IMG/VR virus record: IMGVR_UViG_3300003965_000013
Span: 3,540-67,539 of that record
Length of the DNA stretch: 64,000 nt
Direction: 5' to 3' (one strand)
Origin: a virus
Taxonomy: Duplodnaviria; Caudoviricetes
The notes under the pieces were generated by a model. It searched no databases. It was not told where the DNA came from and saw only the letters and a program-made list of their open reading frames with translations. Positions 3,354 to 53,770 of this stretch are shown one piece after another. A program made the translations under genes and the position numbers. Position 1 is the first letter of the stretch, and each line of letters begins with the position of its first letter.

Positions 3354-3779
3354 ATGCTGAAAGCTCAAATTATCGGCCACCTTGGTCAAGATGCAACTGT
3401 AAATAATGTAAATGGTAAACAGGTAATTAATTTTTCTGTGGCTCACTCCGAAACGTGGAAAGACACTACGGGCGAAAAGAAAAGTAAGACGGTATGGGTG
3501 AGTTGTTCTTATTGGACGGATAAAACCGGGTTGGTGCCTTACCTCACCAAAGGGACGCAGGTGTATGTGGAAGGAATGCCGGAAGCAAGGACGTATGCGA
3601 AGAATGATGGTACTACGGTGGCCCAACTGCAGTTGCGTGTTGGTACGGTGCAGTTACTTTCATCCGGAAATAATAATGCTGCAGGCAATGACGACTCAGA
3701 TAATACCCCCGAAAGGCAATACGAGCCCGTAACGCAGCAGCAGATGGGATCAGGTTATGTACAGAGGGACGGGTATTAG
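3354..3779 (+). CDS. ssb: Single-stranded DNA-binding protein (acidic DDLPF tail is out of frame)
   Basis: IIGHLGQD...VINFSVAHSE...GTQVYVEG OB fold; GEIVDDLPF* is encoded in the +1 frame at 3781-3810. Confidence 0.95.
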   Translation: MLKAQIIGHLGQDATVNNVNGKQVINFSVAHSETWKDTTGEKKSKTVWVSCSYWTDKTGLVPYLTKGTQVYVEGMPEARTYAKNDGTTVAQLQLRVGTVQLLSSGNNNAAGNDDSDNTPERQYEPVTQQQMGSGYVQRDGY

Positions 3780-3815
3780 TGGTGAGATTGTAGATGATTT
3801 GCCGTTTTAATGACT

Positions 3816-3950
3816 GCCTTACGAATCAGTATTGGCGAAGGCAGGGCAATAGCGAACCGTCAGCCGAAATAACAAACTAAAGTAAAATTATTATTCAAAA
3901 TGTTGAGATTAAGAACGTCCAGCCAAACTATTGCCAATGCAATGTTAGCT
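3816..3950 (+). repeat. attC/attI-like site A0 (degenerate left core GCCTTAC; right core GTTAGCT)
   Basis: Arms TATTGGCGAAGGCAGGGC / GTCCAGCCAAACTATTGCCAATG. Confidence 0.55.
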
Positions 3951-3958
3951 GCCGTTTT

Positions 3959-4246
3959 TTGTCAAGACGCAAACCGCAAAATAAAATGGCAAAACCAATT
4001 TGCGTTATCAAAGTAGATAACAAACTCGGAACATTTACCCCTATTTATCAAATCCAAAGTTTACTGGATGATAGACTTAATGATTACCATGTTTTAGTTG
4101 TCCCATTCGAGCAGCCTGCTGACGAATATCACGAACCAATGCAAGTGCAGGTTTTTCACGAAAAAGACTTTACGGAAATTCAATACGCTGAACTTAAAAA
4201 GATTATATCTGATGCAGTAGAGACTGTCGCACCGAATGGCAGCTAA
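3959..4246 (+). CDS. Hypothetical cassette protein (cassette 1)
   Basis: 95 aa (ATG at 3986 likely); stop codon in GGCAGCTAAC. Confidence 0.75.
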   Translation: MSRRKPQNKMAKPICVIKVDNKLGTFTPIYQIQSLLDDRLNDYHVLVVPFEQPADEYHEPMQVQVFHEKDFTEIQYAELKKIISDAVETVAPNGS

Positions 4247-4375
4247 CGTGCCGGGGCTTTGCGGTCGTTGCCGAATTAGAATTACTAAACTTAAAAATAA
4301 AACTACAGATGAAAAAAGAAACAGGCGTTGAGCCTTTAACCGAAAGCGGCAATGCCGCACAAGCCAGTGTTGGGC
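4241..4375 (+). repeat. attC-like site A1
   Basis: AGCTAAC...GGCTTTGCGGTCGTTGCCG / CGGCAATGCCGCACAAGCC...GTTGGGC. Confidence 0.85.
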
Positions 4376-4590
4376 GCAGTGCCCAGCCGTTGACGCCTCA
4401 AACGGCTAACACCACAAACAAACTTTGCAAGCTGACTAGGGATAATATGTCGAATGGTGGATTTTGGATACTTGCACAGGAGAAAACTATTGTCATTTCC
4501 CGGCATCAAGACGGAAGCTCGTTGGAGGCATCAATAGAAATTCCGAAGTCGGTTTTTGATGCTTTCGTTGAGTTTTATACTAAAGGTTGA
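4309..4590 (+). CDS. Hypothetical cassette protein (cassette 2); N-terminus encoded inside site A1
   Basis: 93 aa; ...AAQASVGRSA spans the GTT crossover. Confidence 0.75.
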   Translation: MKKETGVEPLTESGNAAQASVGRSAQPLTPQTANTTNKLCKLTRDNMSNGGFWILAQEKTIVISRHQDGSSLEASIEIPKSVFDAFVEFYTKG

Positions 4591-4600
4591 TGGGCATTGC

Positions 4601-4730
4601 GCCCAACGTTTGACGTATTGGCGATGTGCCTGAATTGAAAAACAAAAGTTTAATAAAGTAATGCAGTTGAATAGCGATAAACAGTTTGCGGTAGCACCAC
4701 AACAGGCATTTTGCCAATACGGTGTTAAGT
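4601..4730 (+). repeat. attC-like site A2
   Basis: GCCCAAC...CGTATTGGCGATGTGCCTG / CAGGCATTTTGCCAATACG...GTTAAGT. Confidence 0.85.
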
Positions 4731-4817
4731 GCAGTGCCGTAGATGGTTTATTCTATCGCTCAATAGAATTGCTGAAGAAAAGTTTTAAACAGCGGGGCGG
4801 CTGAAGTCACAGCCTCT

Positions 4818-5618
4818 TTGATACCTATGAGTTATGAACTGAAACATGGAGACTGCTTGGAATTGATGAAGGATATTCCTACTGGCAGTATTGATATGAT
4901 ACTTTGTGATTTACCTTATGGCACGACTTCAAATAAGTGGGATGCTGTGATACCGTTTGAACCGCTTTGGGGGCAATACAAGCGGATAATAAAACCGAAT
5001 GGCGTAATTGCATTAACGGCTTCACAACCGTTTTCTTCTGCCCTTGTAATGAGCAATCCGAAGATGTTCAAGCATGAATGGATTTGGATAAAGAACAGAG
5101 GCGGCAACTTCGCTAACACCGTTAGAGAGCCTTTTAAGGAGCATGAGCAGGTTTTGATATTTAGCAATGGTAAATGGACGTATAACCGCCAAATGCAGGA
5201 AAGAACAGGCGCAGGAGCAGACAGGGTGAAGTATGACCTGAACTGGCGAAGCCAATCGGAAAACTACCGTGAATTTGAAGGTAGAGAAGGGCAAAGAGTT
5301 GGAGAATTAAGAGTGCCTTCTTCGTGGCAGAAGTTCAATGTTGATGTAAGTAAACTGCACCCGACTATTAAACCTGTACCACTTTTTGAATACCTTATAA
5401 AGACGTACACAAATGAAGGTGAAACGGTGTTGGATAACTGCATGGGAAGCGGCACAACGGGAGTTGCTTGCCTGAATTTGAAGCGGAATTTTATCGGGAT
5501 AGAGAAGGAAGAAAAGTATTATGAGATAGCACAGAAACGACTTTCCGAATTGCTGACGAAGGAAGCAAAGGGAAGCGTGGGCGGCTGTTTAAAACTTTTC
5601 GATGATGAAGCTGCATAG
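4818..5618 (+). CDS. DNA methyltransferase, N4/N6 beta class (cassette 3)
   Basis: DLPY catalytic motif, HPTIKP, VLDNCMGSGTT SAM-binding motif; ATG at 4827 likely. Confidence 0.92.
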   Translation: MIPMSYELKHGDCLELMKDIPTGSIDMILCDLPYGTTSNKWDAVIPFEPLWGQYKRIIKPNGVIALTASQPFSSALVMSNPKMFKHEWIWIKNRGGNFANTVREPFKEHEQVLIFSNGKWTYNRQMQERTGAGADRVKYDLNWRSQSENYREFEGREGQRVGELRVPSSWQKFNVDVSKLHPTIKPVPLFEYLIKTYTNEGETVLDNCMGSGTTGVACLNLKRNFIGIEKEEKYYEIAQKRLSELLTKEAKGSVGGCLKLFDDEAA

Positions 5619-5638
5619 AGTTCCGAAAGTGGCATTGC

Positions 5639-5764
5639 ACTTAACGGGTTCGGGCTTGGCGAAGTGGCTGAACCCGAAGCTAAATAGAATTACTAAACTT
5701 TAAAATTAAAAACAAATGTCAAATAGAATTACTGAACAGCCATTTTGCCAAACCCGTGTTAGCG
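5639..5764 (+). repeat. attC-like site A3
   Basis: ACTTAAC...CGGGCTTGGCGAAGTGGCTG / CAGCCATTTTGCCAAACCCG...GTTAGCG. Confidence 0.85.
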
Positions 5765-6018
5765 GTAGTTTTATTGTAGAGAAAGGCAATATATCTTTCT
5801 GCGATGGACACGGAACAAGGTATTGGCGTTTTATGGCAAAAGGATTAAAGCGTAAGGTTGAACACTTTATAGAAACTTTTGACAATGATTTAAAGCATAA
5901 TGACAAATACCATTGTTACATTGATTATGGTGGATGTATTGGCTATCGGTCATTTGATACGAACAATTTTAAAGAAGCAGTAAGTTGGATGTTGAAGCGT
6001 CTGAAAAATTACCGCTAA
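5716..6018 (+). CDS. Hypothetical cassette protein (cassette 4)
   Basis: 100 aa; QPFCQTRVSGS leader lies inside A3; stop in CGCTAAC. Confidence 0.75.
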   Translation: MSNRITEQPFCQTRVSGSFIVEKGNISFCDGHGTRYWRFMAKGLKRKVEHFIETFDNDLKHNDKYHCYIDYGGCIGYRSFDTNNFKEAVSWMLKRLKNYR

Positions 6019-6101
6019 CGTTCTGCCAGCTTTATGCTGTGCGCTGAACATATTATTAACTCACGGCACTTGTCCGCATAGCATAAAACTGCTTGTTATG
6101 T
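6013..6101 (+). repeat. attC-like site A4
   Basis: CGCTAAC...AGCTTTATGCTGTGCG / CGCATAGCATAAAACT...GTTATGT. Confidence 0.85.
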
Positions 6102-6118
6102 GCCGTTAATTTTAGTCT

Positions 6119-6349
6119 ATGAAATTATTTAAATATGGTGTAAGTGTTTTTGATAGCCGTCAAAAAAAGTACGGTGGATTTAATCACTTCATAGCAGGGA
6201 AAATATTTAGGTGGCGATTGTGTTATTTAGACATTTACCTGAAAAGAAAATTCAAATTTGAAATAGTCCACAATGATGATAACAGTTATTATGACGGCTA
6301 TCATAATCACGTTTGGGTTGGTTGGGTGTTGGTGTCTTATGGCACATAA
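6119..6349 (+). CDS. Hypothetical cassette protein (cassette 5)
   Basis: 76 aa; stop in ACATAAC. Confidence 0.7.
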   Translation: MKLFKYGVSVFDSRQKKYGGFNHFIAGKIFRWRLCYLDIYLKRKFKFEIVHNDDNSYYDGYHNHVWVGWVLVSYGT

Positions 6350-6398
6350 CGGTTTCGGGCTTTGCGTTCGTTTTAATGCCGCCAAACCGCTGTTATAA
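6344..6398 (+). repeat. Short attC-like site A5 (55 bp)
   Basis: ACATAAC GGTTTCGGGC...GCCGCCAAACC GCT GTTATAA. Confidence 0.75.
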
Positions 6399-6468
6399 GC
6401 TGGCTGCGGTTAATTAAAACAAAATCTCAATACGAAGCAATAAACAAAAGAATTAAAAAAAAGAAGCG

Positions 6469-7209
6469 ATGGCAATAGAAATTAAAAACAAAGACTGCTT
6501 TGAGTTAATGGCAGAAATGCAAGATAAGAGCATAAACTTAATCTTTGCAGACCCGTGGTATTATCCCGAAAACCAAAAAACAAAAAACGCTTTTGAAGAT
6601 GATGTGTTTTGGGATATTACAAAAAAATGGATGAAGGAGTTTATTAGATTGATAAAGGATGATGGGCATATATTCATAAGTTTTTCAAGTCAAAAAATGG
6701 CAAAGTTTGAGTTTTTACTTGCCGAATTTGGTGTGCCATTAAAAAGCAGAATTGTTTGGCATTATAGAAATGCTGGTGGCAGATGTGCTGACAAGGGACA
6801 ATTTGGAAAAACTTATGAGATGATTTATCACATTGGTTTTGGGGATAGATTAAATTTCCCAGAAAAATGGGGTGATGAAAGATTTGATGTTTGGACTATT
6901 GCAATACCGCAAAGCAATTTCACAGATAAAAAGATACACCCATTTCAAAAGCCAATAGCACTACTTGAAAGGGTTGTTGGAATTGGCAGCAATGAAGGTG
7001 ATTTAGTTTTAGACCCATTTTCAGGTAGTGGGACAACTGCATTGGCTTGCAAAAAACTAAATAGAAATTTTATTGGAAGCGAATTGAATAAAGAACATTA
7101 TGAAAATAGCTTGGAACGTCTTAACCTAAACGGTTTTGAAAAAACCGAAGCGGGTGGGCTTTTTTTTAATTCTTTTCAAACGGAATTGTCAAACGAAGCA
7201 GGAACGTAG
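6469..7209 (+). CDS. DNA methyltransferase, N4/N6 beta class, DPWY variant (cassette 6)
   Basis: FADPWY (normally DPPY), HPFQKP, VLDPFSGSGTT. Confidence 0.9.
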   Translation: MAIEIKNKDCFELMAEMQDKSINLIFADPWYYPENQKTKNAFEDDVFWDITKKWMKEFIRLIKDDGHIFISFSSQKMAKFEFLLAEFGVPLKSRIVWHYRNAGGRCADKGQFGKTYEMIYHIGFGDRLNFPEKWGDERFDVWTIAIPQSNFTDKKIHPFQKPIALLERVVGIGSNEGDLVLDPFSGSGTTALACKKLNRNFIGSELNKEHYENSLERLNLNGFEKTEAGGLFFNSFQTELSNEAGT

Positions 7210-7217
7210 CAGCTTGC

Positions 7218-7351
7218 TTATAACGGTAAGGTGTTGCTGTCAGTGTGGGAATTGGCAGCACAAAAGTTAAATTAAAAAGCAAAAGATAACAATATGAACG
7301 AAAGTAAAATTGAAAACGGTCAGCCCACATTGCAGCAACACAATGTTAGGC
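7218..7351 (+). repeat. attC-like site A6
   Basis: TTATAAC...GTGTTGCTGTCAGTGTGGG / CCCACATTGCAGCAACAC...GTTAGGC. Confidence 0.85.
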
Positions 7352-7503
7352 GCAGTTTTGAGGAATGGTCTGCCGACCTTGCTAAATTAATGAAACAATA
7401 TCCACTTGTACATAATAAATGGAAAGTTTCAAGATTTAGGACAATGTACAACGACGGGTTGTCAGTTAAAGAAGCATTTAGATGTTGGTTTTGCGCTCAC
7501 TAA
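7294..7503 (+). CDS. Hypothetical cassette protein (cassette 7)
   Basis: 69 aa; QPTLQQHNVRRS leader lies inside A6. Confidence 0.7.
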   Translation: MNESKIENGQPTLQQHNVRRSFEEWSADLAKLMKQYPLVHNKWKVSRFRTMYNDGLSVKEAFRCWFCAH

Positions 7504-7507
7504 TTGC

Positions 7508-7674
7508 GCCTAACGGTCAAAAATTGCTGTTGTGCGCCCTGAGTTTGGAGGCACGACAAACGTAAAAGGGCAAGCAACAGCAGAGGCAGACGGCGCATAA
7601 TAGCAATTTCATGTTGGCCGCCGTACGGGTTTAGTGGGATGCTCTGCCGAATTTTTTGACCGTTGGACAGCCAT
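7508..7674 (+). repeat. attC-like site A7 with two alternative right ends (7613 and 7661)
   Basis: AATTGCTGTTGTGCGCC / GGCGCATAATAGCAATT; AACGGTCAAAAATT (7512-7525) inverted at 7650-7663. Confidence 0.75.
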
Positions 7675-7763
7675 AAGTAAAACAAAAGGAGTGATAACGG
7701 TTTGGGTTACGGCTTTCACCCCGTATGAAAAGAAATAATTTTTTAACTATTAAATTTTACAAA

Positions 7764-7970
7764 ATGAGTTATGAAGCTCCTGCAAAAGAATCAGTAGTAT
7801 TCTGGCAGACAAATGAAGAAAATGGAGTAGGTGAGCCTGCTTTGTTGATTGAATTTTACAATGATGTTATGCAGATTTCGCAAGACGGTGAACGGATTAA
7901 CATCAACTATGAATCTATAAAAGATTTGGTAAAGATTTTAAGAACTGCAAATGAAAGGAAACCGTCTTGA
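7764..7970 (+). CDS. Hypothetical cassette protein (cassette 8)
   Basis: ORF 7725..7970; ATG at 7764 after an A-rich leader. Confidence 0.7.
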   Translation: MSYEAPAKESVVFWQTNEENGVGEPALLIEFYNDVMQISQDGERININYESIKDLVKILRTANERKPS

Positions 7971-8003
7971 TATTTCTTTGAATTACGGGGTGAAAGTATG
8001 GCG

Positions 8004-8140
8004 GTCCAACGGTCGGGTATTTCTGATGTGCCTGTAATCAAGGCTTGTCAGCCCGGTAGAAAATTATTCTAAAGATGAACAAGGAACAAATGTACATAGC
8101 GGATTCGTCAGCAGGCATAGCAGAAATACCTATGTTATCT
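8004..8140 (+). repeat. attC-like site A8
   Basis: GTCCAAC...GGGTATTTCTGATGTGCCTG / CAGGCATAGCAGAAATACCT...GTTATCT. Confidence 0.85.
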
Positions 8141-8767
8141 GCTGCCTTTGTCGGTCGTGTACTTGTTGCCTGTGAGTATTCAGGTCGTGTCAGAGATGCT
8201 TTTACTGCCAAAGGATGGGATGCTATTAGTTGCGATTTATTACCATCAAGAACGACAGGCAAACACTACCAGGGAAATGTTTTTGATATTATAAACGATG
8301 GCTTTGATTTATTGATAGGCTTTCCACCTTGTACTTTTATTACAAACGTTAATACAAAATGGCGTGGCGATATTGAAAGATTAAAGAAAGCATGTGATGG
8401 CATGAAGTTCTTTGCTGATTTATATTCTGCACCTATAAAAATGATTTGCCTGGAAAATCCAGTAGGCATGTTAAGTAATTGTTTTCGTAAGCCTGACCAA
8501 ATTATTACACCTGTTCAATTTGGCGGCTGTGAGCAAAAGAATACGTGCCTTTGGTTGAAGGGGTTGCCAAAATTAGTGCATACAAAAACGGATAATTTAT
8601 TCGAGAAAAGAACACACGGCGTTTTATCGGAAGAATTTACCAGCAATAAATCACACCGGCAAAGCCATTGGTATAACAATAATAAAAGTGAACGGTCAAC
8701 AACATTTCAATCTGTCGCAAATGCAATGGCTGAACAATGGACGGCTTTTGTCTTAGGTAGCAGATAA
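8075..8767 (+). CDS. Short phage DNA cytosine-C5 methyltransferase-like protein (cassette 9)
   Basis: VLVACEYSG, GFPPCT (catalytic PC), LENPVG; stop in AGATAAC. Confidence 0.8.
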   Translation: MNKEQMYIADSSAGIAEIPMLSAAFVGRVLVACEYSGRVRDAFTAKGWDAISCDLLPSRTTGKHYQGNVFDIINDGFDLLIGFPPCTFITNVNTKWRGDIERLKKACDGMKFFADLYSAPIKMICLENPVGMLSNCFRKPDQIITPVQFGGCEQKNTCLWLKGLPKLVHTKTDNLFEKRTHGVLSEEFTSNKSHRQSHWYNNNKSERSTTFQSVANAMAEQWTAFVLGSR

Positions 8768-8786
8768 CACAAGGATTTGCGTAACA

Positions 8787-9015: not shown

Positions 9016-9447
9016 ATGGGTAAAAAGGTAGTGTATAGGCAAAAGACGGTAGATCACGAAACGGGAGAGGTAACAGAATCGGTATCGGTTACAATGGACA
9101 AACAACCTGCACCACAGTATTGTTCTTTTTTTATGGATGCTGTACCCTATATGAAACTGATTGGAGCTATGGAAAAGGATGTGCTGTTTCAAATGGTGAA
9201 ATACCTGGAATGGAACACGAACATGGTGTTTGCCAATGAGCACAACCGGATAGCGATTGCCTATGATTTGGGATTGAAGCCCAACAGTGTAGGTGTAGCA
9301 ATACGGAACATGAAGAAAAAGAACATTTTGCGCCGGGTGCGTAACACGGTGTACTGGATTAACCCAAACATACTGTTTTACGGTACGCTTGTAAAGCGGG
9401 AGGAAATGCTGAAAAGCGGAATTGATTGGGAGATACGGAGTAAATAA
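9016..9447 (+). CDS. RepL-like winged-helix protein (replication or regulation)
   Basis: VDHETGEV N-terminus; HTH IAYDLGLKPNSVGVAIRNMKKK followed by YWINPNILFYG. Confidence 0.65.
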   Translation: MGKKVVYRQKTVDHETGEVTESVSVTMDKQPAPQYCSFFMDAVPYMKLIGAMEKDVLFQMVKYLEWNTNMVFANEHNRIAIAYDLGLKPNSVGVAIRNMKKKNILRRVRNTVYWINPNILFYGTLVKREEMLKSGIDWEIRSK

Positions 9448-28877: not shown

Positions 28878-30929
28878 ATGTTTAAACCCATTCATAACGG
28901 TAAGTGTGTAACGGTGTACGGCTTAAAATGCTGGATACCTCCTGTGGGGTTTGGCTATCACTCCGACCCGGACCAGGCACGGATGATTGAGGCTAAAACA
29001 GGGCTGGCGCAACCACTGCTGGAACGGGTGGATGTGATTAAGCGAAGCACAAAAAAAGAAGAACAGTATTGGGAGCGACCTGATATACCTGCTGAGGTAA
29101 ACGAATGGTTTGAAGAAGAACGGGATCGGCAATTAACAGAACCCGAATGGCAGCACCCGGAACTGGCAAAGATTTCTCAACGGGAATGGCACAGAAGAAG
29201 ATACGGTGTGTGGTTTTATAACAACGGTGTGCCTGAGTATATAACAGGGCCCAACTACTATTTTCTTACCTACTGGGCCATGAACAGCGATACGGGCTAT
29301 CCTGACTTTCGGAAGATTGACCAGGAGTATTTTTATTTCTGGGCGTATTGTTATGAGGATCCAAAATGCTACGGGATGAATGACATTGAGAAGCGCCGGA
29401 ATGGTAAAACCGAGAAGGCCGCATGTATAGCTGTAGAGATTATTACCCGTACTGCAAAATCCCATGCCTACATACAAAGCAAAACCGAAGCGGATGCAAA
29501 TGACTTGTTTGACTTAAAACTGATTCCTGCTTTTCGTGCCATGCCTCCGTACTTTAAGCCAGAGTATGACCGGGCGAAAGGTGACGTGCCCAAGGGAAAT
29601 ATTCGGTTCTTCAAAACCAGTAAGAAGGGTAAGATTGACCCTAAACTGCAGAAGGTGCCTGAATTACAATCCAGCATCAACGCCAAGGAAAGCGGAGCGA
29701 AGGCTATTGATGGTTTGAGAAGTAAAATATACATAGGCGATGAAAGTGGTAAGACAAAGGTGGATATGCTGGACAGGCATAAGGTAGTGCAGCGCTGTTG
29801 TAAAAACCAGAAAGGTGAGATTATTGGTAAAATGATTATTACCACTACGGTTGAGGAGGTAGGTTTTAAATACAAGTTTGACAAGCTGTGGGCACAAAGC
29901 AACCAGTTTGAAAGACAAAAAGACGGCAGCACTAAAAGCGGACTTTACAAATTGTTTACGCCTGCACACCGTAGTATGGATTATGACATTTACGGCTATC
30001 CGAAAGAACAGGAAGCCATTGATGCTATTAATGCGGAAAGGGAAAAGTTTAAGGATAGTGTGGAGGAATTAAATGATGTGATACGCAAAGAACCCATGAC
30101 GGAGGAAGAAGCGTTTTTTGTGGATGCCAAGCAGTGCCATTTCAACCCCAACAGTTTGAATTTTAGATTGAGCGATTTGAGCCTGCTCAAAAACTACAAA
30201 GAGCGTGGCAATTTTTCATGGGCTAATGGGGAGCGTGATACGAAGGTGATATGGACACCCGACCCTACGGGCAGGTGGGAGATATGCTGGCTGTTTGATA
30301 AACCCGGGCAGAGCAATAAAGTAGAACGCAGGGGCAACCGATATATGCCGCTGAACGGTTTGCGATTTATTACAGGCTGCGACCCCTTTGACCATGACCA
30401 AGTAGAAGATACTAACCAACGAAGCAAGGGTTGTGCGTTTACATTAAAGCGCCACGATCCCAATGCGGAGAACGACCCTTATAACAAAGCCTTCATCTGC
30501 AAATACCTGTACCGGCACGAACTGGCGTACAGTTTTTATGAAGATATGATTATGCAGTGCTTCTACTTTGGAAGCCCACTGTTGTTTGAAAATAACAAAG
30601 GAGGTATTGCACGGTATTTTGAATTGAGAGGGTACAAAGATTTCTTGATTCATTACAGCGACCGTAAAGAAGCCGGTATTCCTGCCAGCACTGAGAACAA
30701 AGTGATGATGCTGGAAATTATGCAAGAGTTTTTTAAAGAACATATTGACAAACAATTTTTCCCTGATCTAATACAAGACCTGTTGAAGTTTGAAATAGCC
30801 AACACGCAAAAGTACGATTTGAGTATGGCAGCGGGGTGGACACTGTTTGCTGACCATTACAATGTAGCAGCCAAAGGAAGCACAGGATTAAAAGACGTAA
30901 CAAAATTATTCAGGCGGTATGCCGCATAA
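28878..30929 (+). CDS. terL: Terminase large subunit
   Basis: KRRNGKT Walker A, IGDESGK Walker B, TGCDPFD nuclease motif, YDLSMAAG. Confidence 0.93.
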   Translation: MFKPIHNGKCVTVYGLKCWIPPVGFGYHSDPDQARMIEAKTGLAQPLLERVDVIKRSTKKEEQYWERPDIPAEVNEWFEEERDRQLTEPEWQHPELAKISQREWHRRRYGVWFYNNGVPEYITGPNYYFLTYWAMNSDTGYPDFRKIDQEYFYFWAYCYEDPKCYGMNDIEKRRNGKTEKAACIAVEIITRTAKSHAYIQSKTEADANDLFDLKLIPAFRAMPPYFKPEYDRAKGDVPKGNIRFFKTSKKGKIDPKLQKVPELQSSINAKESGAKAIDGLRSKIYIGDESGKTKVDMLDRHKVVQRCCKNQKGEIIGKMIITTTVEEVGFKYKFDKLWAQSNQFERQKDGSTKSGLYKLFTPAHRSMDYDIYGYPKEQEAIDAINAEREKFKDSVEELNDVIRKEPMTEEEAFFVDAKQCHFNPNSLNFRLSDLSLLKNYKERGNFSWANGERDTKVIWTPDPTGRWEICWLFDKPGQSNKVERRGNRYMPLNGLRFITGCDPFDHDQVEDTNQRSKGCAFTLKRHDPNAENDPYNKAFICKYLYRHELAYSFYEDMIMQCFYFGSPLLFENNKGGIARYFELRGYKDFLIHYSDRKEAGIPASTENKVMMLEIMQEFFKEHIDKQFFPDLIQDLLKFEIANTQKYDLSMAAGWTLFADHYNVAAKGSTGLKDVTKLFRRYAA

Positions 30930-48263: not shown

Positions 48264-48283
48264 AACATCGCAGCCGCACCCTA

Positions 48284-48377
48284 TGGTAACAAGGCATTTG
48301 CGTCATTGCCCTTTGAGGTGTCTGCTAAAATTGAGGTGTCTGCGTGGGCAACGAACGCAAATACCCAACCGTTAGTG
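48284..48377 (-). repeat. attC-like site B1
   Basis: (- strand) CACTAAC GGTTGGGTATTTGCGTTCGTTGCCC / GGGCAATGACGCAAATGCC TT GTTACCA. Confidence 0.75.
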
Positions 48378-48478
48378 GTAATGGGCAGACAATCATCCAT
48401 GAACTGCATAACGATTGTATTTATTTTTTTGCCCACGCCACACATTAGTTTCCAATTCAACATTTTATTAATCATTCA

Positions 48479-48985
48479 TCAAAATCTTATATTTTCTATC
48501 CCGCTAACAAGAATATGCCAGTAAAATTGAGCCCAGGTAAAATACTTCGGTGTCTTATCCGCTGCTGAATTAAAATAACCATAAACTCCTTCATGAGATG
48601 GTAATATCCTTTTTGTTATGTGCATCCACGGCTCTTTCGTGCTGTATAGTATATTATAAATTTGAACGGGGCTTTTATCGAACATTATCTGCTTAATTTC
48701 ATTAGCAGAAAAGGCTTCAAAAACAACTGTCTTATTCTCCACATATTTACCAAATGTATTTTTTATAGATGCAAAAAACATGGTAGCTCTTGCATCATCT
48801 TCTGTTCCTTCATATTTATTATCATAAATTTCAGGATAATTGATTACAGACTTTATAAGTTCACTCTTAAAAACTTCGGTAAATGAAGGTGAACATTCTG
48901 GACAATCAGTTTCGTAGCCGCCGCCAACAGTGGGCATTGATACGAATATCTTTTTAGTCCCGTTGCAAGTAGTACAATCTGACAT
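48479..48985 (-). CDS. Hypothetical protein with N-terminal Zn ribbon
   Basis: CTTCNG...CPEC. Confidence 0.7.
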   Translation of the reverse strand: MSDCTTCNGTKKIFVSMPTVGGGYETDCPECSPSFTEVFKSELIKSVINYPEIYDNKYEGTEDDARATMFFASIKNTFGKYVENKTVVFEAFSANEIKQIMFDKSPVQIYNILYSTKEPWMHITKRILPSHEGVYGYFNSAADKTPKYFTWAQFYWHILVSGIENIRF

Positions 48986-49093
48986 TGTTTATATTTTTTG
49001 ATGAATAAAATGTTTATTGCGTCAGTCGGGCTTCAGTTCCCTGATTAAGCGTTCGGTTTTCCAAATTCCCGCCCGAACGCAAAACCCTGAACG

Positions 49094-49348
49094 TTAGCGG
49101 CTATGTATAGACACAATCATAACCGTGTCACCAACAATGTATTTATTAGCACTATCTTTTAACCACCACGAGTTTTTCCCTGTAACTGAAATCATTTGGT
49201 ATTGATAAATGCCTTTACCATAAGGCTGTACATTTTTAACATAAAATCTTCCATCAGAAGGCATCAGCTCGCCGCAAGATGAAAACACAGCCACTAACAA
49301 TAAAATTGCCACAAGTACGGCTGACGAATGTAAATTGAACTTTTGCAT
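49094..49348 (-). CDS. Putative lipoprotein (cassette-borne)
   Basis: LLVAVFSS-C; stop in CGCTAAC. Confidence 0.65.
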   Translation of the reverse strand: MQKFNLHSSAVLVAILLLVAVFSSCGELMPSDGRFYVKNVQPYGKGIYQYQMISVTGKNSWWLKDSANKYIVGDTVMIVSIHSR

Positions 49349-49367
49349 AGATTTATTTTTTCAGGTT

Positions 49368-49547
49368 TTACAGATACTCATTAACTATTTGTTTAGCTGC
49401 CCATATTAGGTAAATAACAAACAAAAATGATATTACACCAATTGTTTCTTGAGAGTAGTATCTTGCCGCTAAATACAGAAGGTATCCAGCTAAAATAAAA
49501 GCCGCCGCTATCACCACGCTTAAAAGCCATTTGAGTATGTGTTTCAT
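49368..49547 (-). CDS. 59-aa two-TM membrane protein (below the ORF-track cut-off)
   Basis: Manual translation MKHILKWLLSVVIAAAFILAGYLL...WAAKQIVNEYL. Confidence 0.6.
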   Translation of the reverse strand: MKHILKWLLSVVIAAAFILAGYLLYLAARYYSQETIGVISFLFVIYLIWAAKQIVNEYL

Positions 49548-49548
49548 T

Positions 49549-49752
49549 CTATTTGATTTCTTGAAGCAAAGAATTAATAACTACATCTATTTGTTTTTTA
49601 TGACCTAAATTACTTTCTAAGATAGACTTAAAAAACATCTTGTAAACATCATCAGTTAAAATGTTATTTTTGTTTACATATGGATAACCAAATTCTTGCA
49701 GGTTCTTAACTCCGTTATTAATTAATTTATCTCTTAATTCTTGATTGTTCAT
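49549..49752 (-). CDS. Hypothetical protein
   Basis: 67 aa, coupled to neighbours. Confidence 0.7.
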   Translation of the reverse strand: MNNQELRDKLINNGVKNLQEFGYPYVNKNNILTDDVYKMFFKSILESNLGHKKQIDVVINSLLQEIK

Positions 49753-50559
49753 GACTTCTTCGTTTTATATTGTTCAAGTTTCTCCGCTGCAAAACGGCGG
49801 AACAAGAGCCTCGTCTGTGCCGACTGTTCCTTAAAGTGTTTAACTGCATTTTCGTAATATATTTTGTTTATCTCTATTCCAGTAAATGAAAACTTTTCTT
49901 CCAACGCTGCAATGGCACTATTTCCACTACCTAAATGCGTGTCAAGTATCGTTTGTCCTTCTGTTGCAAATTTGCTTAAAATCCACCGATAAAGCTGTTT
50001 TGGCTTTTGTGTAGGGTGTATTTTCGTTTCTGCACTTGTGTTGCCTTGTAGCCCCCCATAATATCTATAATCAAAACAAAGTGCGGGTTTTTTAAATGAA
50101 GTCCACGCCAATTCACCATCAGCAAAATTTGCAACAGGATTCTGCTTATACCAAAATATAAAGCATTGTGTAGGTGGTAGCGGAAAATAGTTGCCCCCCC
50201 CAAACAATTTGATTTTTGCTTACTCTAAAAAGCTGCTCCCAGTATTCATCTTGTGGCGTTTCTTTATCCCAATCTGCATTGTGATATTTATTCGCTTTAT
50301 AGCGGTTTCCGTTGCTATCCTTGTTTGTTCTATTAAACGCCCCAAAGTTTAACCCATACGGGGGGTCTACTATTGCCAAATCAAATTGTTTGTCCTCAAA
50401 TGTTTTCATTACCTCCACACAGTCGGCATTAATAAACCGAATAGAAGGGCAGCTGCTAACATCGGCTATAACCAATGGCGGCTGTGTGCTAATTTGTAAG
50501 TTTGTATCTTCGTTCATTCTGTACCATATTTTGAAAGTTTTGTACTCGTAATCCGCCAC
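49749..50559 (-). pseudogene. N4/N6 DNA methyltransferase frameshifted at a G8 tract (or phase-variable)
   Basis: ORF 50146..50559 has DPPY; ORF 49749..50207 has HPTQKP and LDTHLGSG; removing one G at 50194-50201 restores QIVWGGNYF. Confidence 0.85.
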
Positions 50560-50584
50560 TGGTCATAGCCGCAAAACGTTAGCT
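50454..50584 (-). repeat. attC-like site B2
   Basis: (- strand) AGCTAAC...GCGGCTATGACCAGTGGCGG / CCGCCATTGGTTATAGCCG...GTTAGCA. Confidence 0.85.
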
Positions 50585-50585
50585 G

Positions 50586-50906
50586 CTACCTTTCGGACAC
50601 AGCATAATAATTCGACAAGTGATTTTCTACAATACGTAAACACTGTTTTTTCTCACCAAAAGAAAGTTTTTCAGAAACAAAATATGACATCTCGCCATCG
50701 GTTAAATTTTCTGCTAAGTAGTCGTATTCATCATCTGTAATTCTGTAAACTTCTTTTATTGCGTTATCAAACAAATCAAGCATACCACCGCTTGACTTTA
50801 TTTTTAAATCTTCGTATGGTCGAAACTTTCTTTTACATCGACTGACAAAGGCAGCAGCTAACATGGCATTGGTTCCATGTGGGCTGACGTTCAAATTTTT
50901 ATCCAT
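50586..50906 (-). CDS. Hypothetical cassette protein
   Basis: 106 aa; leader ...GTNAMLAAA spans the GTT crossover. Confidence 0.75.
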   Translation of the reverse strand: MDKNLNVSPHGTNAMLAAAFVSRCKRKFRPYEDLKIKSSGGMLDLFDNAIKEVYRITDDEYDYLAENLTDGEMSYFVSEKLSFGEKKQCLRIVENHLSNYYAVSER

Positions 50907-50986
50907 AGTAATTCAATTTTGCTTTAGTAATTTATTCGGCTAACGTGCAAGAAATCCCACACGGCAGCAATACCTGAACGTTCTTT
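50856..50986 (-). repeat. attC-like site B3
   Basis: (- strand) AAAGAAC...GGTATTGCTGCCGTGTGGG / CCCACATGGAACCAATGCC...GTTAGCT. Confidence 0.75.
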
Positions 50987-51006
50987 GCAATGCCGCTGAC
51001 GGTTCA

Positions 51007-51234
51007 TTATTCAGCGACATCATTTGTATTTGTTTTTTGCCCACGCTTCTTACCCAGCTTATGTTTTTCAATCAGCTTTTGTAGTGCTTTATTTATCTTC
51101 ATCTTTTCTTCATCTGTAAAATCTGTTGGGTTGTTTCTACTATTGAAACCACGTATCTTGAACTTGTGGCTTTTTATCTCTGGCAGAAATTCAGCAAAGA
51201 ATGGATCGGCTTTTATATAATCAAACAACTTCAT
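51007..51234 (-). CDS. Hypothetical protein
   Basis: 75 aa. Confidence 0.7.
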   Translation of the reverse strand: MKLFDYIKADPFFAEFLPEIKSHKFKIRGFNSRNNPTDFTDEEKMKINKALQKLIEKHKLGKKRGQKTNTNDVAE

Positions 51235-51491
51235 TTGAATATAAATTCAGGCAAATCAATTTTTTCAACAGGAAAATCTTTGTAAGCATCAATATAATGT
51301 TTACTACATCCAGCAGAATATAAATCTATCATAACACCAATTTTTAATCTTTCTCTCATACTTTCAGTGAAATCTTCTGGCAGCAAATCAGTGTATGTTT
51401 TTATGAATTTATCAACTGTTTTTTTGCTGAAAGAGACCCTGCCGCTTTTTGTCTCATAACCATATTCAGCGCAAAATTGTTCGGCATTCAT
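51231..51491 (-). CDS. Hypothetical protein
   Basis: 86 aa. Confidence 0.7.
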   Translation of the reverse strand: MNAEQFCAEYGYETKSGRVSFSKKTVDKFIKTYTDLLPEDFTESMRERLKIGVMIDLYSAGCSKHYIDAYKDFPVEKIDLPEFIFK

Positions 51492-51790
51492 AGTTGCATT
51501 CCTTTAAATTTTAAAGGAACTTTATATCCAACCTCACATTCATTACTATCTGAAAAATATTCAGGCAGCTTACCGTCTTTAACATAAGCCCAAAGCCTGT
51601 GAGTTAAGCCTTCATCGTCATTGCCTTCATTTCTTACAAGGCATAAACGCTGGTTATCTTCAAGCGTTGGGACTTCTTCAATGGTATCATAGAAACTGCT
51701 ATCTTCTATATCCCCAAATTCGTCAATAGTCTCAACTGACCATTCATAAAATACTTTGTTTGGCATAATATTTATCGTTTGTTTACACAA
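51488..51790 (-). CDS. Hypothetical protein
   Basis: 100 aa; upstream TATCTTTG -7 element on the minus strand. Confidence 0.7.
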   Translation of the reverse strand: MCKQTINIMPNKVFYEWSVETIDEFGDIEDSSFYDTIEEVPTLEDNQRLCLVRNEGNDDEGLTHRLWAYVKDGKLPEYFSDSNECEVGYKVPLKFKGMQL

Positions 51791-51967
51791 AGATACGGAA
51801 ACTTTTTGGTTTCACCAAATTTATTTTTAAGAGAGATGCTCCGCAGCTTCAAAAAACAAATACAAACCCAGCTTTATATCAGTAAAACTCATATCTCTAA
51901 TCATCTTTTAGTTCTTAATCCGGTCTGGCGAATCACAGAATATCTGCACTTCGCCAAGCCCTGTTCG

Positions 51968-52315
51968 TTATGCCCCATTGCTGGCTGCATAAACGCTATT
52001 CAGCTTTAGAACGACTTCGTGACTAGGCTTTTTAATCTTTCCTCTTTCTAATTGCGATAAGTAAGCATTAGATATTCCAGTCAACTTCTCAACGTCACGA
52101 AGTGTCATACCTGCCTTTGCCCGCATCAACTTGAAATCCCGCAACGATGGCATAACATTGCATTGCCGCAATTTGGCTTCATACCATCGCACAGCGTGAA
52201 TAAAGCTCACCCTTGCAACGTCCTGCTCTTCTTTAGTATTCCAAGCGGCTGCATAGCTACGAGCCACAGTAAGTAATTCTTCATCAGTAATATTCATAAG
52301 ACTTTTTATTTTCAA
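51968..52315 (-). CDS. XRE-family HTH protein; the HTH half is a cassette
   Basis: MTLRDVEKLTGISNAYLSQLERGK. Confidence 0.85.
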   Translation of the reverse strand: MKIKSLMNITDEELLTVARSYAAAWNTKEEQDVARVSFIHAVRWYEAKLRQCNVMPSLRDFKLMRAKAGMTLRDVEKLTGISNAYLSQLERGKIKKPSHEVVLKLNSVYAASNGA

Positions 52316-52393
52316 GTGCCAAACTACAGCAATGCTTCAACGTAAGGCAAAATTTGCCACTACACAGCCCTTTCTGCACACGGGGCATCGCTG

Positions 52394-53770
52394 TTATTCA
52401 TAACCATTTATCACTGGTACAAAGTGGCCCATCCCTGTTTTTGGTTTGAACATCATTTTAGTTGGTATATATTCCAGTTCTATATGAATGTTTGCGGGGC
52501 CATTTCTCCATTTTCGTACAATTAAATCCCTTTCATTTTCTGTACTAAATCCTGTGACAGAATTTTCGGTAATGCCAGTTAAAAAATCACTATGCAGAAA
52601 CATAATGACATCTGCATCTTGCTCCAAACTACCGCTTTCCCGCAGGTCGTAAGGCATAGGGTAGCGATCTTGCCCCTTTCGCTTAGTAACCTCACGACTT
52701 AACTGTGCTAAGGCTATAACAGGTATTTGATACTCTTTTGCCATTAATTTTAAACCCCTGCTGATGGCTGATACCTCTTGCTCCCGATTGCTGTTTTTTT
52801 TATTATCTGGCTCTACAAGCTGCAGGTAATCTACAATAATCATATCTACTCCGTAGCGGTGCTTTAAAATGGCGGCCTTGGCTTTTATATCGTGAATATT
52901 TACGCCTGTCTTATCAGAAATAAATATGGGAAGCCTGGCGGTGCTTTGGCTGACTTTGTTGTAAAAGTTTTGACGCTCCCGCTCATCTTTAATCAACCCC
53001 CTGAAAATGACATTAAAATCAGTTTGGGTGTCAATGCTGGCAATTCTGGCCGCCACCTCTGCATTACTCATTTCAAGCGATATGAAACCCACCTTTTTAC
53101 CAGCCCTTGCGTTTGTGATAGCAAGTTGACCTGCGTAAGCAGATTTACCCACCGATGGCCTTGCGCCAAACACTATAAAATTGCCGGGGAAAAAGCCGCC
53201 AGTTTTTTTATCAAGTTCAGGGATCATAGTTGTAATACCCATACCCCTTGCCTGTTCCATCATTTCCTGATGCTTTAACAGGTTTACAACACTCACTTCC
53301 ATGTCCTGCCAGTCTTGGTTTGAATCACCACTGGCAAGTTGGGTAAGTTTTTCATTGATTTGTTTAATAACCTCAAACCGGTTAGCATCTTCACTAAACC
53401 CTGACCGTGTTAATTTAATCAACTCCCGCTCTTTCCACATTTCCTGCAGAATTTTAGCATGGTATTCAAGGTGTGCGGTGCTTACAACGTTGTTGATAAG
53501 CAGTGTGCAATAGTATGCTGTGTTGTGCTCAGCCAATAATTCCAGTTTTTTCTTTCTGATAAGCACATCAACAACGGTTAACAGGTCAATAGGGAGCGAA
53601 TGGTCAAACATGTTTTTAATAGCCCACCACACCCATCCGTTGGCTTCTGAGTAAAACATTTCCTGCGTTAAAAAACCGTAGACTCTTCCCACTGCTGTTT
53701 TTTCAAGCAGGCAGGCACCAAGAACGGCGGCTTCTAAATCAGGCGAATAGTGGATGTTTTTTTGATACAT
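52394..53770 (-). CDS. dnaB: Replicative DNA helicase
   Basis: GARPSVGKS Walker A, IVDYLQL, LAQLSR, DLRESGSLEQDAD. Confidence 0.97.
   Translation of the reverse strand: MYQKNIHYSPDLEAAVLGACLLEKTAVGRVYGFLTQEMFYSEANGWVWWAIKNMFDHSLPIDLLTVVDVLIRKKKLELLAEHNTAYYCTLLINNVVSTAHLEYHAKILQEMWKERELIKLTRSGFSEDANRFEVIKQINEKLTQLASGDSNQDWQDMEVSVVNLLKHQEMMEQARGMGITTMIPELDKKTGGFFPGNFIVFGARPSVGKSAYAGQLAITNARAGKKVGFISLEMSNAEVAARIASIDTQTDFNVIFRGLIKDERERQNFYNKVSQSTARLPIFISDKTGVNIHDIKAKAAILKHRYGVDMIIVDYLQLVEPDNKKNSNREQEVSAISRGLKLMAKEYQIPVIALAQLSREVTKRKGQDRYPMPYDLRESGSLEQDADVIMFLHSDFLTGITENSVTGFSTENERDLIVRKWRNGPANIHIELEYIPTKMMFKPKTGMGHFVPVINGYE

Follow-up and report, generated by a model that had tools for sequence, protein, structure and literature searches.

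In a 64,000-nucleotide window of viral DNA (positions 3,540 to 67,539 of the IMG/VR record IMGVR_UViG_3300003965_000013), we looked at a row of hairpin sites and small genes that lies on the minus strand downstream of the replicative helicase gene dnaB, and which is called array B below. The window is a prophage of ~41% G+C and corresponds to positions 3309390-3373389 of a complete 3.98-Mb host genome. Array B is probably a partly decayed, integron-like cluster of mobile cassettes in a temperate flavobacterial phage, with cassettes exchanged by a Xer-like recombinase supplied in trans. Within this reading we infer the enzyme, the strand used, the present-day activity and the expression of the cassettes. 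A second set of cassettes, array A, follows the ssb gene (3354-3779) within the early block of the plus strand.

Hairpin sites and matched cassette ends

Array B contains three intact sites (B-s3, B-s4 and B-s7) and three degenerate ones (B-s2, B-s5 and B-s6); they share the minus strand, are separated by genes and lie in a stretch of 4.1 kb (Table 1). The original prediction, which was made from the sequence alone, had placed hairpins at 50856-50986, 50454-50584 and 48284-48377, and both alignment and structure recovered an intact site at each of these places. The three intact sites were aligned with eight sites of array A. In all 11 sites, AACG follows the 5′ box and TGTT is found at the 3′ box. 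Ten of the 11 pairs of the 11-bp inner stem show compensatory changes on both sides. Paired cells made up 89.9% of the alignment and 71.6% of its shuffled versions. Each of the five covariation measures stayed below the observed value in all 500 shuffles, and pairing fell to 34-51% when the partner was slid by 1-3 columns. The structural covariation that had been expected among the sites of arrays A and B is thus present. B-s4 forms a long imperfect hairpin with a DNA fold of -23.8 kcal/mol (z -4.1), and B-s3 and B-s7 share its alignment and structure. A unit opens with a 5′ box whose last letters are AAC. A spacer, a stem of ~11-20 bp and a variable loop lead to the 3′ box, which begins with GTT, and the gene or genes come next; at its far end, the unit has a box that is complementary to this 3′ box. 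Array B therefore displays attC-type features, namely the AAC 5′ box, the GTT 3′ box, a paired inner box, an unpaired spacer and a variable loop.

A covariance model, R1, was built from the 11 window sites. It matched on one strand only and added three weak sites in array B. Neither GCTAACG nor a degenerate 12-mer was enriched when taken alone; the signal of the sites is structure plus position, not a short motif. A fixed-motif regular expression for the 5′ arm, applied genome-wide, was too narrow and was discarded.

The two ends of a cassette match at the three places that had been predicted. In unit 3, GTTAGCTGCTGCC (50862) and GGTAGCAGCTAAC (50578) match over 16 nt with one mismatch; in unit 5, GTTAGTGGCTGTG (49298) and CATAGCCGCTAAC (49093) match over 14 nt with two mismatches; and in unit 1, the match between GTTATGCC (52156) and GGCATAAC (51967) is 8 nt long. 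Chance alone gives five other 8-nt matches in these 4 kb, and the unit 1 pair counts by its location alone, since it lies directly after the hairpin and at the stop codon. The ends of unit 4 match only with gaps, and those of units 2 and 6 have no match because their sites have decayed. In array A, matched ends were found in nine consecutive cassettes, compared with 5-18 scattered matches per shuffled window, and in the arrays of 17 other genomes the mean score of a cassette's own ends was 8.6, compared with 4.1 for the two boxes of one site. Within array A, not one but two 3′ boxes come after the site A-s7 (window 7505-7671, plus strand), namely GTTGGCCGCC at 7612 and, ~50 nt further on, GTTGGACAGCC at 7662. 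Each looks like the complement of the end of the next cassette, and the doubling may reflect a duplication or a very small, empty unit.

Hairpins between the genes of one operon, several of them degenerate, could also be immobile intergenic elements, such as terminators, repetitive extragenic palindromic (REP)-like repeats or regulatory RNA, with a coincidental likeness to attC. This is very improbable, given the matched cassette ends and the covarying stem, and given that hairpin-plus-gene units recur in unrelated genomes, as described below. Moreover, no Rfam family matches the sites, and terminator-like sites in the array showed no excess over shuffled sequence.

The start of array B had been placed at the dnaB stop codon. 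The expected GAATAAC is present there, but nothing hairpin-like comes after it and R1 finds no site, so that this start is not supported. The first site-like element, B-s1, begins 44 nt beyond GAATAAC with TGCCTTAC (52349-52342) and ends at GTTATGCC; its 18-nt stem pairs 52335-52318 with 52177-52160. A TGCCTTAC-G box, a candidate attI-like signal, is common to the first sites of array A (3815-3822) and array B. CCTTACG occurs seven times in the window, hence the box shared by the first sites weighs little, and no recombinase adjoins it. MAFFT gave no alignment of the first-site regions of the two arrays.

As predicted, array B is more eroded than array A: three of its approximately seven sites are intact, compared with eight intact and two weak end sites in array A. 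The sites that had been called truncated (49021-49099, 51900-51974 and 49391-49402) are real, although they are better termed degenerate, as cores or an arm have changed. B-s2 has kept its 5′ box (GGGGCATAAC) and its stem, and its 3′ core is ATT in place of GTT. B-s5 has a changed 5′ box (GGGCAGCTAAAC) and no 5′ arm, with the loop, its ATG (49348) and the 3′ box still in place; the missing arm is present in the homologous units of two other loci (L104 and L107). In B-s6, the 5′ box (AGCCGCTAAC) is intact and the stem is preserved in part, while the 3′ core has been lost. With a core or arm missing from three of about seven sites, a good part of array B would be fixed. Competence for recombination is suggested only for unit 3, unit 4 and the terminal site.

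Exchange of single cassettes and gene polarity

The DnaB protein of the prophage has no close relative in the genome contigs or viral contigs searched. Among 300 genomes of the host family, the best phage-type DnaB was 49% identical, and four such loci had no site within 1.5 kb. Mobility was traced by homologues of single cassettes in place of related prophage arms. Gene 3 (106 aa) has 55 homologues, with up to 99% identity, and the loci examined lie in three unrelated phage contexts. At the DNA level, identity of unit 3 is 85-91% and is confined to 50982-50575. In a four-way alignment of this unit, all sequence upstream of the B-s3 AAC differs, and what is common to all is the hairpin body, near-identical in the three other contexts, the start codon in the loop, the gene and the next 5′ box, up to AACG, where the likeness ends. 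Homologues of gene 5 (84 aa) show 83-92% protein identity and were found in three different contexts, in all of which the homology of unit 5 stops at ...CCGCTAACG.

Two pairs of near-identical metagenomic phage contigs were also compared. L105 and L106 are 100% identical over 5608 nt and then diverge exactly after ...GCTAAC. L098 and L100 are 99.8% identical over 1667 nt and break after GTTAGC, on the 3′-box side (at 9237 and 1667, respectively). To judge from these sequences, both differences are natural cassette replacements. All breaks seen lie at conserved cores, mostly in such a way that the hairpin remains attached to the gene downstream. With homology ending at AAC and the hairpin accompanying the gene behind it, the coding strand would usually be crossed over at AA|C, the equivalent of G|TT on the opposite strand. 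The original prediction had expected gain and loss at G|TT. That cassettes are gained and lost exactly at the cores was borne out; the position was mostly AA|C of the coding strand, with one break on the G|TT side.

The same breaks could be read as those of mosaic modules shuffled by homologous recombination, in which the hairpins would be expression elements (5′ UTR, start codon and mRNA stem-loop) that also give short homology to phage recombinases, as has been proposed for stem-loop cassettes of T4-like phages, and the phage would use no site-specific enzyme. The prophage does carry recombination genes (an AAA_24 ATPase, a weak NinB-like match and SSB), the loops hold start codons and conserved A-rich leaders, breaks are found at both edges of the hairpin, and no recombinase was found in any phage contig examined. 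However, the breaks fall exactly at AAC/GTT cores and none lies inside a hairpin, and the cassette ends are complementary over up to 17 nt of otherwise variable sequence, which homologous exchange does not predict. The stem covaries, meaning that structure rather than sequence is conserved, and the same site family is arrayed beside a tyrosine recombinase in bacteria. Altogether, we consider shuffling by homologous recombination alone unlikely.

Polarity was then defined as the orientation of the gene between neighbouring sites relative to the R1 model strand. In chromosomal arrays of bacteria (L077-L096), 43 of the 46 genes that could be decided lie opposite to the model strand, which is the classical order with the gene ahead of its site. 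In contrast, the gene is on the model strand in all 18 decided cases of the phage arrays, a small sample of related sequences with 14 further short intervals that are ambiguous. The phage sets were arrays A and B of the window, Polaribacter phage P12002L (L097) and three metagenomic phage contigs (L098, L099 and L101). At the long sites, the start codon of the open reading frame (ORF) and the first 15-20 codons lie within the hairpin loop and the 3′ arm, with loop ATGs at 52297, 50906, 50517 and 49348, and the 3′ arm is read in a different frame in each unit. As the hairpin is kept with the downstream gene, the ORFs of long sites start in the loop and read through the 3′ arm. The captured genes had been predicted to be promoterless cargo simply read from the operon. 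This description does not fit, as the genes are not simply start-less: their start codons lie in hairpin loops. All array B genes point the same way as dnaB, an arrangement that makes their expression by read-through from the dnaB operon plausible. Sigma-70 promoter-like sites were not enriched in the array, in a scan that does not cover Bacteroidota promoters.

A site family of the host's relatives and a recombinase linked to it

R1, although trained on the window only, matched 70 of 150 sampled genomes of the host family, with scores up to 92 bits. The matching sites are ~138 or ~200 nt long, often clustered and often at contig ends. In 20 regions taken from relatives, 93 sites were found, co-oriented within each region, the largest array having at least 15 sites. 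A sequence 'GTTCG...' after some sites in relatives was considered as an array end or attI and rejected, being merely the sequence past the true 3′ box of reverse-oriented cassettes. In the host genome, the locus L041 (8900-9900) holds one clear cassette; its ends match (GTTGGCTGC/GCAGCCAAC) and its 143-aa gene is in reverse orientation. Other strong R1 matches in the host, near 1994 kb and 3127 kb, were rejected as sites, as they have no stem pairing and resemble another repeat. They belong to a ~200-nt repeat (G000:C1:1994582-1994786 and 3127308-3127510; L039 and L040) that has loop-like sequence in common with the sites and is probably a different or decayed element.

An integron integrase (IntI) was defined by the model TIGR02249 with a cut-off of 265 bits. 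By this measure, no IntI is encoded in the complete host genome, where the top match reached 91 bits and left model positions ~180-239 unmatched, nor was there any match above the cut-off in five related genomes with large arrays. The host has a 383-aa tyrosine recombinase, and in at least seven genomes a homologue of it (44-56% identity) is encoded within an array region. TIGR02249 aligns with these array-linked recombinases only at ~5-180 and 235-315 and below the cut-off, and 12-21 residues bridge the gap where IntI has its specific domain. The nearest solved structure is that of XerA. In related bacteria, the arrays continue the direction of a recombinase gene, running on behind its 3′ end. 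The host carries two copies of the recombinase gene (G000:C1:265077-266225 and 3094478-3095584; 383 aa; 63% identical to each other), and weak site-like matches lie ~1-5 kb downstream of both in the same relative orientation (270-288 kb and 3096 kb). Within the collection of papers searched, there was no published description of a recombinase-linked, integron-like platform in Bacteroidota.

Clusters of attC sites lacking integron-integrases (CALINs) have been described in phages. Qi et al. 2023 (PMC9892861) reported 17 such integrase-less clusters, one of them in the Polaribacter phage P12002L with methyltransferases, and IntI1 recombined five of the six phage sites tested, the failure being P12002L attC1. 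The P12002L site related to the array family had been predicted with HattCI (Qi et al. 2023, PMC9892861). In our hands, R1 found six minus-strand sites in P12002L, in two groups at 29.2-32.3 kb and 38.0-39.3 kb around methyltransferase and Mom-like genes, and the published attC1 (30002-30062) is one of the six. The published attC2 falls outside the array site family and occurs twice (29175 and 37201).

Array B could accordingly be an ordinary CALIN, in which canonical attC sites are served by the IntI of some host or plasmid with a G|TT crossover on the bottom strand. The attC anatomy and the matched cassette ends would agree with this, as would the published phage CALINs with methyltransferase cassettes and the sites that IntI1 recombined. 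However, the host genome and the five array-rich relatives all stay below the IntI cut-off, the recombinases beside the arrays have no IntI insert, and the sole published site of the array family is the one on which IntI1 failed. Integron surveys also report almost none in Bacteroidetes, as in the IntegronFinder 2.0 survey. We therefore regard an ordinary IntI-served cluster as quite improbable.

In the mechanism that we favor, a Xer-like recombinase would be supplied in trans, either by the host with its two copies or by a co-infecting element. It would cut the folded site at the AAC/GTT core, and units would be excised or inserted as by an integron integrase. In phage units, the enzyme would usually cut the coding strand (the 'bottom' strand in integron terms) at AA|C, and the hairpin with its loop start codon would move with the downstream gene. 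The array genes would be read from the early operon.

Several observations weigh against a mobile cluster served by such an enzyme. There is no tyrosine recombinase within the prophage window, hence none upstream of array B, and no recombinase is linked to array B. The sites near the host recombinases scored only weakly (17-32 bits) with the phage-trained R1, so that the host enzyme and the phage sites may not be cognate. Half of the array B sites are degenerate, unit 2 is without matched ends, and B-s1 went undetected by R1. No close relative of the prophage was found, so that gain or loss at array B's own junctions was not seen. Finally, the GTTAGC-side break of L098 and L100 means that the side of exchange is not uniform or that homologous recombination contributes. 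The original prediction had spoken of two independent capture loci. A second co-oriented array on the strand opposite to array A, downstream of dnaB, does exist, while the term 'capture locus' stays unproven because the prophage has no tyrosine recombinase and the host genome no IntI.

Setting, cargo and known systems

In the prophage, the plus strand carries the structural genes, and an early operon that includes dnaB runs on the minus strand from ~58.9 kb down to 48.3 kb. At the right end of the window there are a LexA-like repressor and a large serine integrase. Similarity to cultured phages is limited to the methyltransferase stretches and involves phages of Tenacibaculum, Flavobacterium, Nonlabens and Cellulophaga, which indicates a Flavobacteriaceae-like host. 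The non-coding DNA before the plus-strand early genes, at 780-800 and 1985-2200 of the window, holds several copies of a palindromic GTGTAATATATTACAC-like motif, and these look like operators.

The cargo of array B consists of an XRE-type helix-turn-helix (HTH) protein, a split N6/N4 methyltransferase, a lipoprotein-like 84-aa protein and eight ORFs without family matches, which suggests exchangeable anti-restriction or host-interaction genes. The HTH gene starts in the B-s1 loop, and its HTH domain is encoded downstream of the 3′ box. The three ORFs of unit 2 have no site between them, and this is a multi-gene or fused unit. The methyltransferase of unit 4 is split over two frames (50146-50559 and 49749-50207), which overlap at a run of G near 50194-50201 and are otherwise both open. 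No cassette gene follows B-s7, where array B ends against convergent plus-strand genes.

Table 1. Features of array B, its neighbour dnaB and array A, in window positions.
Feature	Positions	Strand	Evidence and remarks
Array A, after ssb	3815-8768	+	Nine consecutive cassettes with matched ends; three with N6/N4 methyltransferase genes
dnaB-type replicative helicase	52394-53770	-	Pfam DnaB_C 3.2e-70, DnaB N-terminal domain 7.2e-20; array B downstream on the same strand
B-s1, probable degenerate first site, ~200 nt	52149-52349	-	5′ box TGCCTTAC, 18-nt stem, 140-nt loop, 3′ box GTTATGCC
Cassette gene 1, 109-aa XRE-type HTH protein	51968-52297	-	Pfam HTH_3 9.4e-10; PHROG transcriptional regulators; ends GTTATGCC/GGCATAAC match
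B-s2, short degenerate site	51910-51976	-	R1 alignment 9.6 bits; fold z -4.0
Unit 2, three tightly packed ORFs (100, 86 and 75 aa)	51007-51790	-	Only weak DUF5053 and PHROG matches
B-s3, intact, 137 nt	50853-50989	-	5′ box CAAAGAAC (C at 50980), 3′ box GTTAGCTGCTGCC (50862); loop ATG 50906
Cassette gene 3, 106 aa, no assigned function	50586-50906	-	Mobile unit, occurs in unrelated phage contigs
B-s4, intact, 137 nt	50451-50587	-	GGTAGCAGCTAAC ... GTTAGCAGCTGCC; loop ATG 50517 of methyltransferase
Unit 4, N6/N4 DNA methyltransferase and ORFs of 67 and 59 aa	49368-50559	-	Pfam N6_N4_Mtase 5e-13 on second half; DPPY motif
B-s5, remnant site	49289-49401	-	R1 alignment 8 bits; 3′ box GTTAGTGGCTGTG (49298)
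Cassette gene 5, 84 aa	49094-49348	-	N-terminus resembles lipoprotein signal peptide; mobile unit in other phage contigs
B-s6, degenerate	49000-49102	-	R1 alignment 14.7 bits, E 0.0015 in local search
Unit 6, ORFs of 168 and 64 aa	48281-48985	-	No Pfam or PHROG match; second ORF enters B-s7
B-s7, intact terminal site, 100 nt	48281-48380	-	CCACTAAC ... GTTACCA; alignment, covariation, fold

Clusters of attC sites in phages are already known, and array B is an eroded example with inverted cassette polarity. Like array B, the P12002L cluster has co-oriented attC-like hairpins, small cassettes, a place in the early or replication region and orphan N6/N4 DNA methyltransferase cargo, with no phage integrase. 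In contrast to P12002L, the window phage is temperate and has two arrays (~9 and ~6 units), and its 100-140 nt sites include the next start codon. Published work treats the phage sites as IntI substrates, whereas the one member of the array family tested failed with IntI1.

Long cassette sites are also typical of sedentary chromosomal integrons, such as the Vibrio cholerae superintegron with its 120-130-nt V. cholerae repeat (VCR) sites, and Treponema denticola has an 'inverted integrase' integron. These share with the present arrays long and similar sites, AAC/GTT cores, a stem, an unpaired spacer, a variable loop and a cassette start complementary to its own end; the position of the arrays of related bacteria, directly behind a co-directional recombinase, is another shared point. 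They differ in that the recombinase linked to the present site family lacks the IntI-specific insertion and falls under the IntI cut-off. Furthermore, the phage genes are inverted relative to the site (18/18, versus 3/46 in chromosomal arrays), and no attI was identified. Promoter-stem-loop (PeSL) cassettes, found in the hyperplastic regions of T4-like phages, offer another comparison, and their exchange is attributed to homologous recombination between promoter/stem-loop sequences. Here, too, small accessory early-region genes behind a conserved stem-loop with expression signals are shuffled between phages; unlike PeSL cassettes, array B has AAC/GTT cores, complementary ends, covarying stems and a bacterial counterpart linked to a recombinase. 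With the Xer-like platform of Bacteroidota, array B shares the site family (135-200 nt, co-oriented), but it has no adjoining recombinase and its gene polarity is inverted. The variant features are a site family linked to a recombinase other than IntI, an enzyme missing from the phage, an inverted polarity with the start codon in the site, and exchange mainly on the AAC side. A broader proposal, toward which we lean slightly less than away, is that flavobacterial phages keep a 'hairpin-first' cassette pool of their own, inverted in polarity with respect to the bacterial arrays of this site family and exchanged between unrelated phages by a borrowed host Xer-like recombinase. In such cassettes, the recombination site would also serve as the gene's 5′ leader, start codon and first codons.

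Integrons are regarded as IntI-dependent devices of gene capture in bacteria, nearly absent from Bacteroidota. In a large Bacteroidota family, this architecture is widespread and goes with a recombinase that does not bear the hallmark of IntI. It also reaches phages, in which gene-plus-hairpin units, methyltransferases included, pass between unrelated genomes. Array B shows the fate of such arrays, as a base change in the GTT core or the loss of an arm freezes cassettes into the phage backbone. The polarity seen in phages, which places a start codon within the site, would couple recombination signals to expression in a new way. If the broader proposal is true, phages would swap anti-restriction and accessory genes in an integron-like manner without carrying the enzyme, and if the host enzyme acts on the phage arrays, lysogeny would be the moment at which accessory genes are reshuffled.

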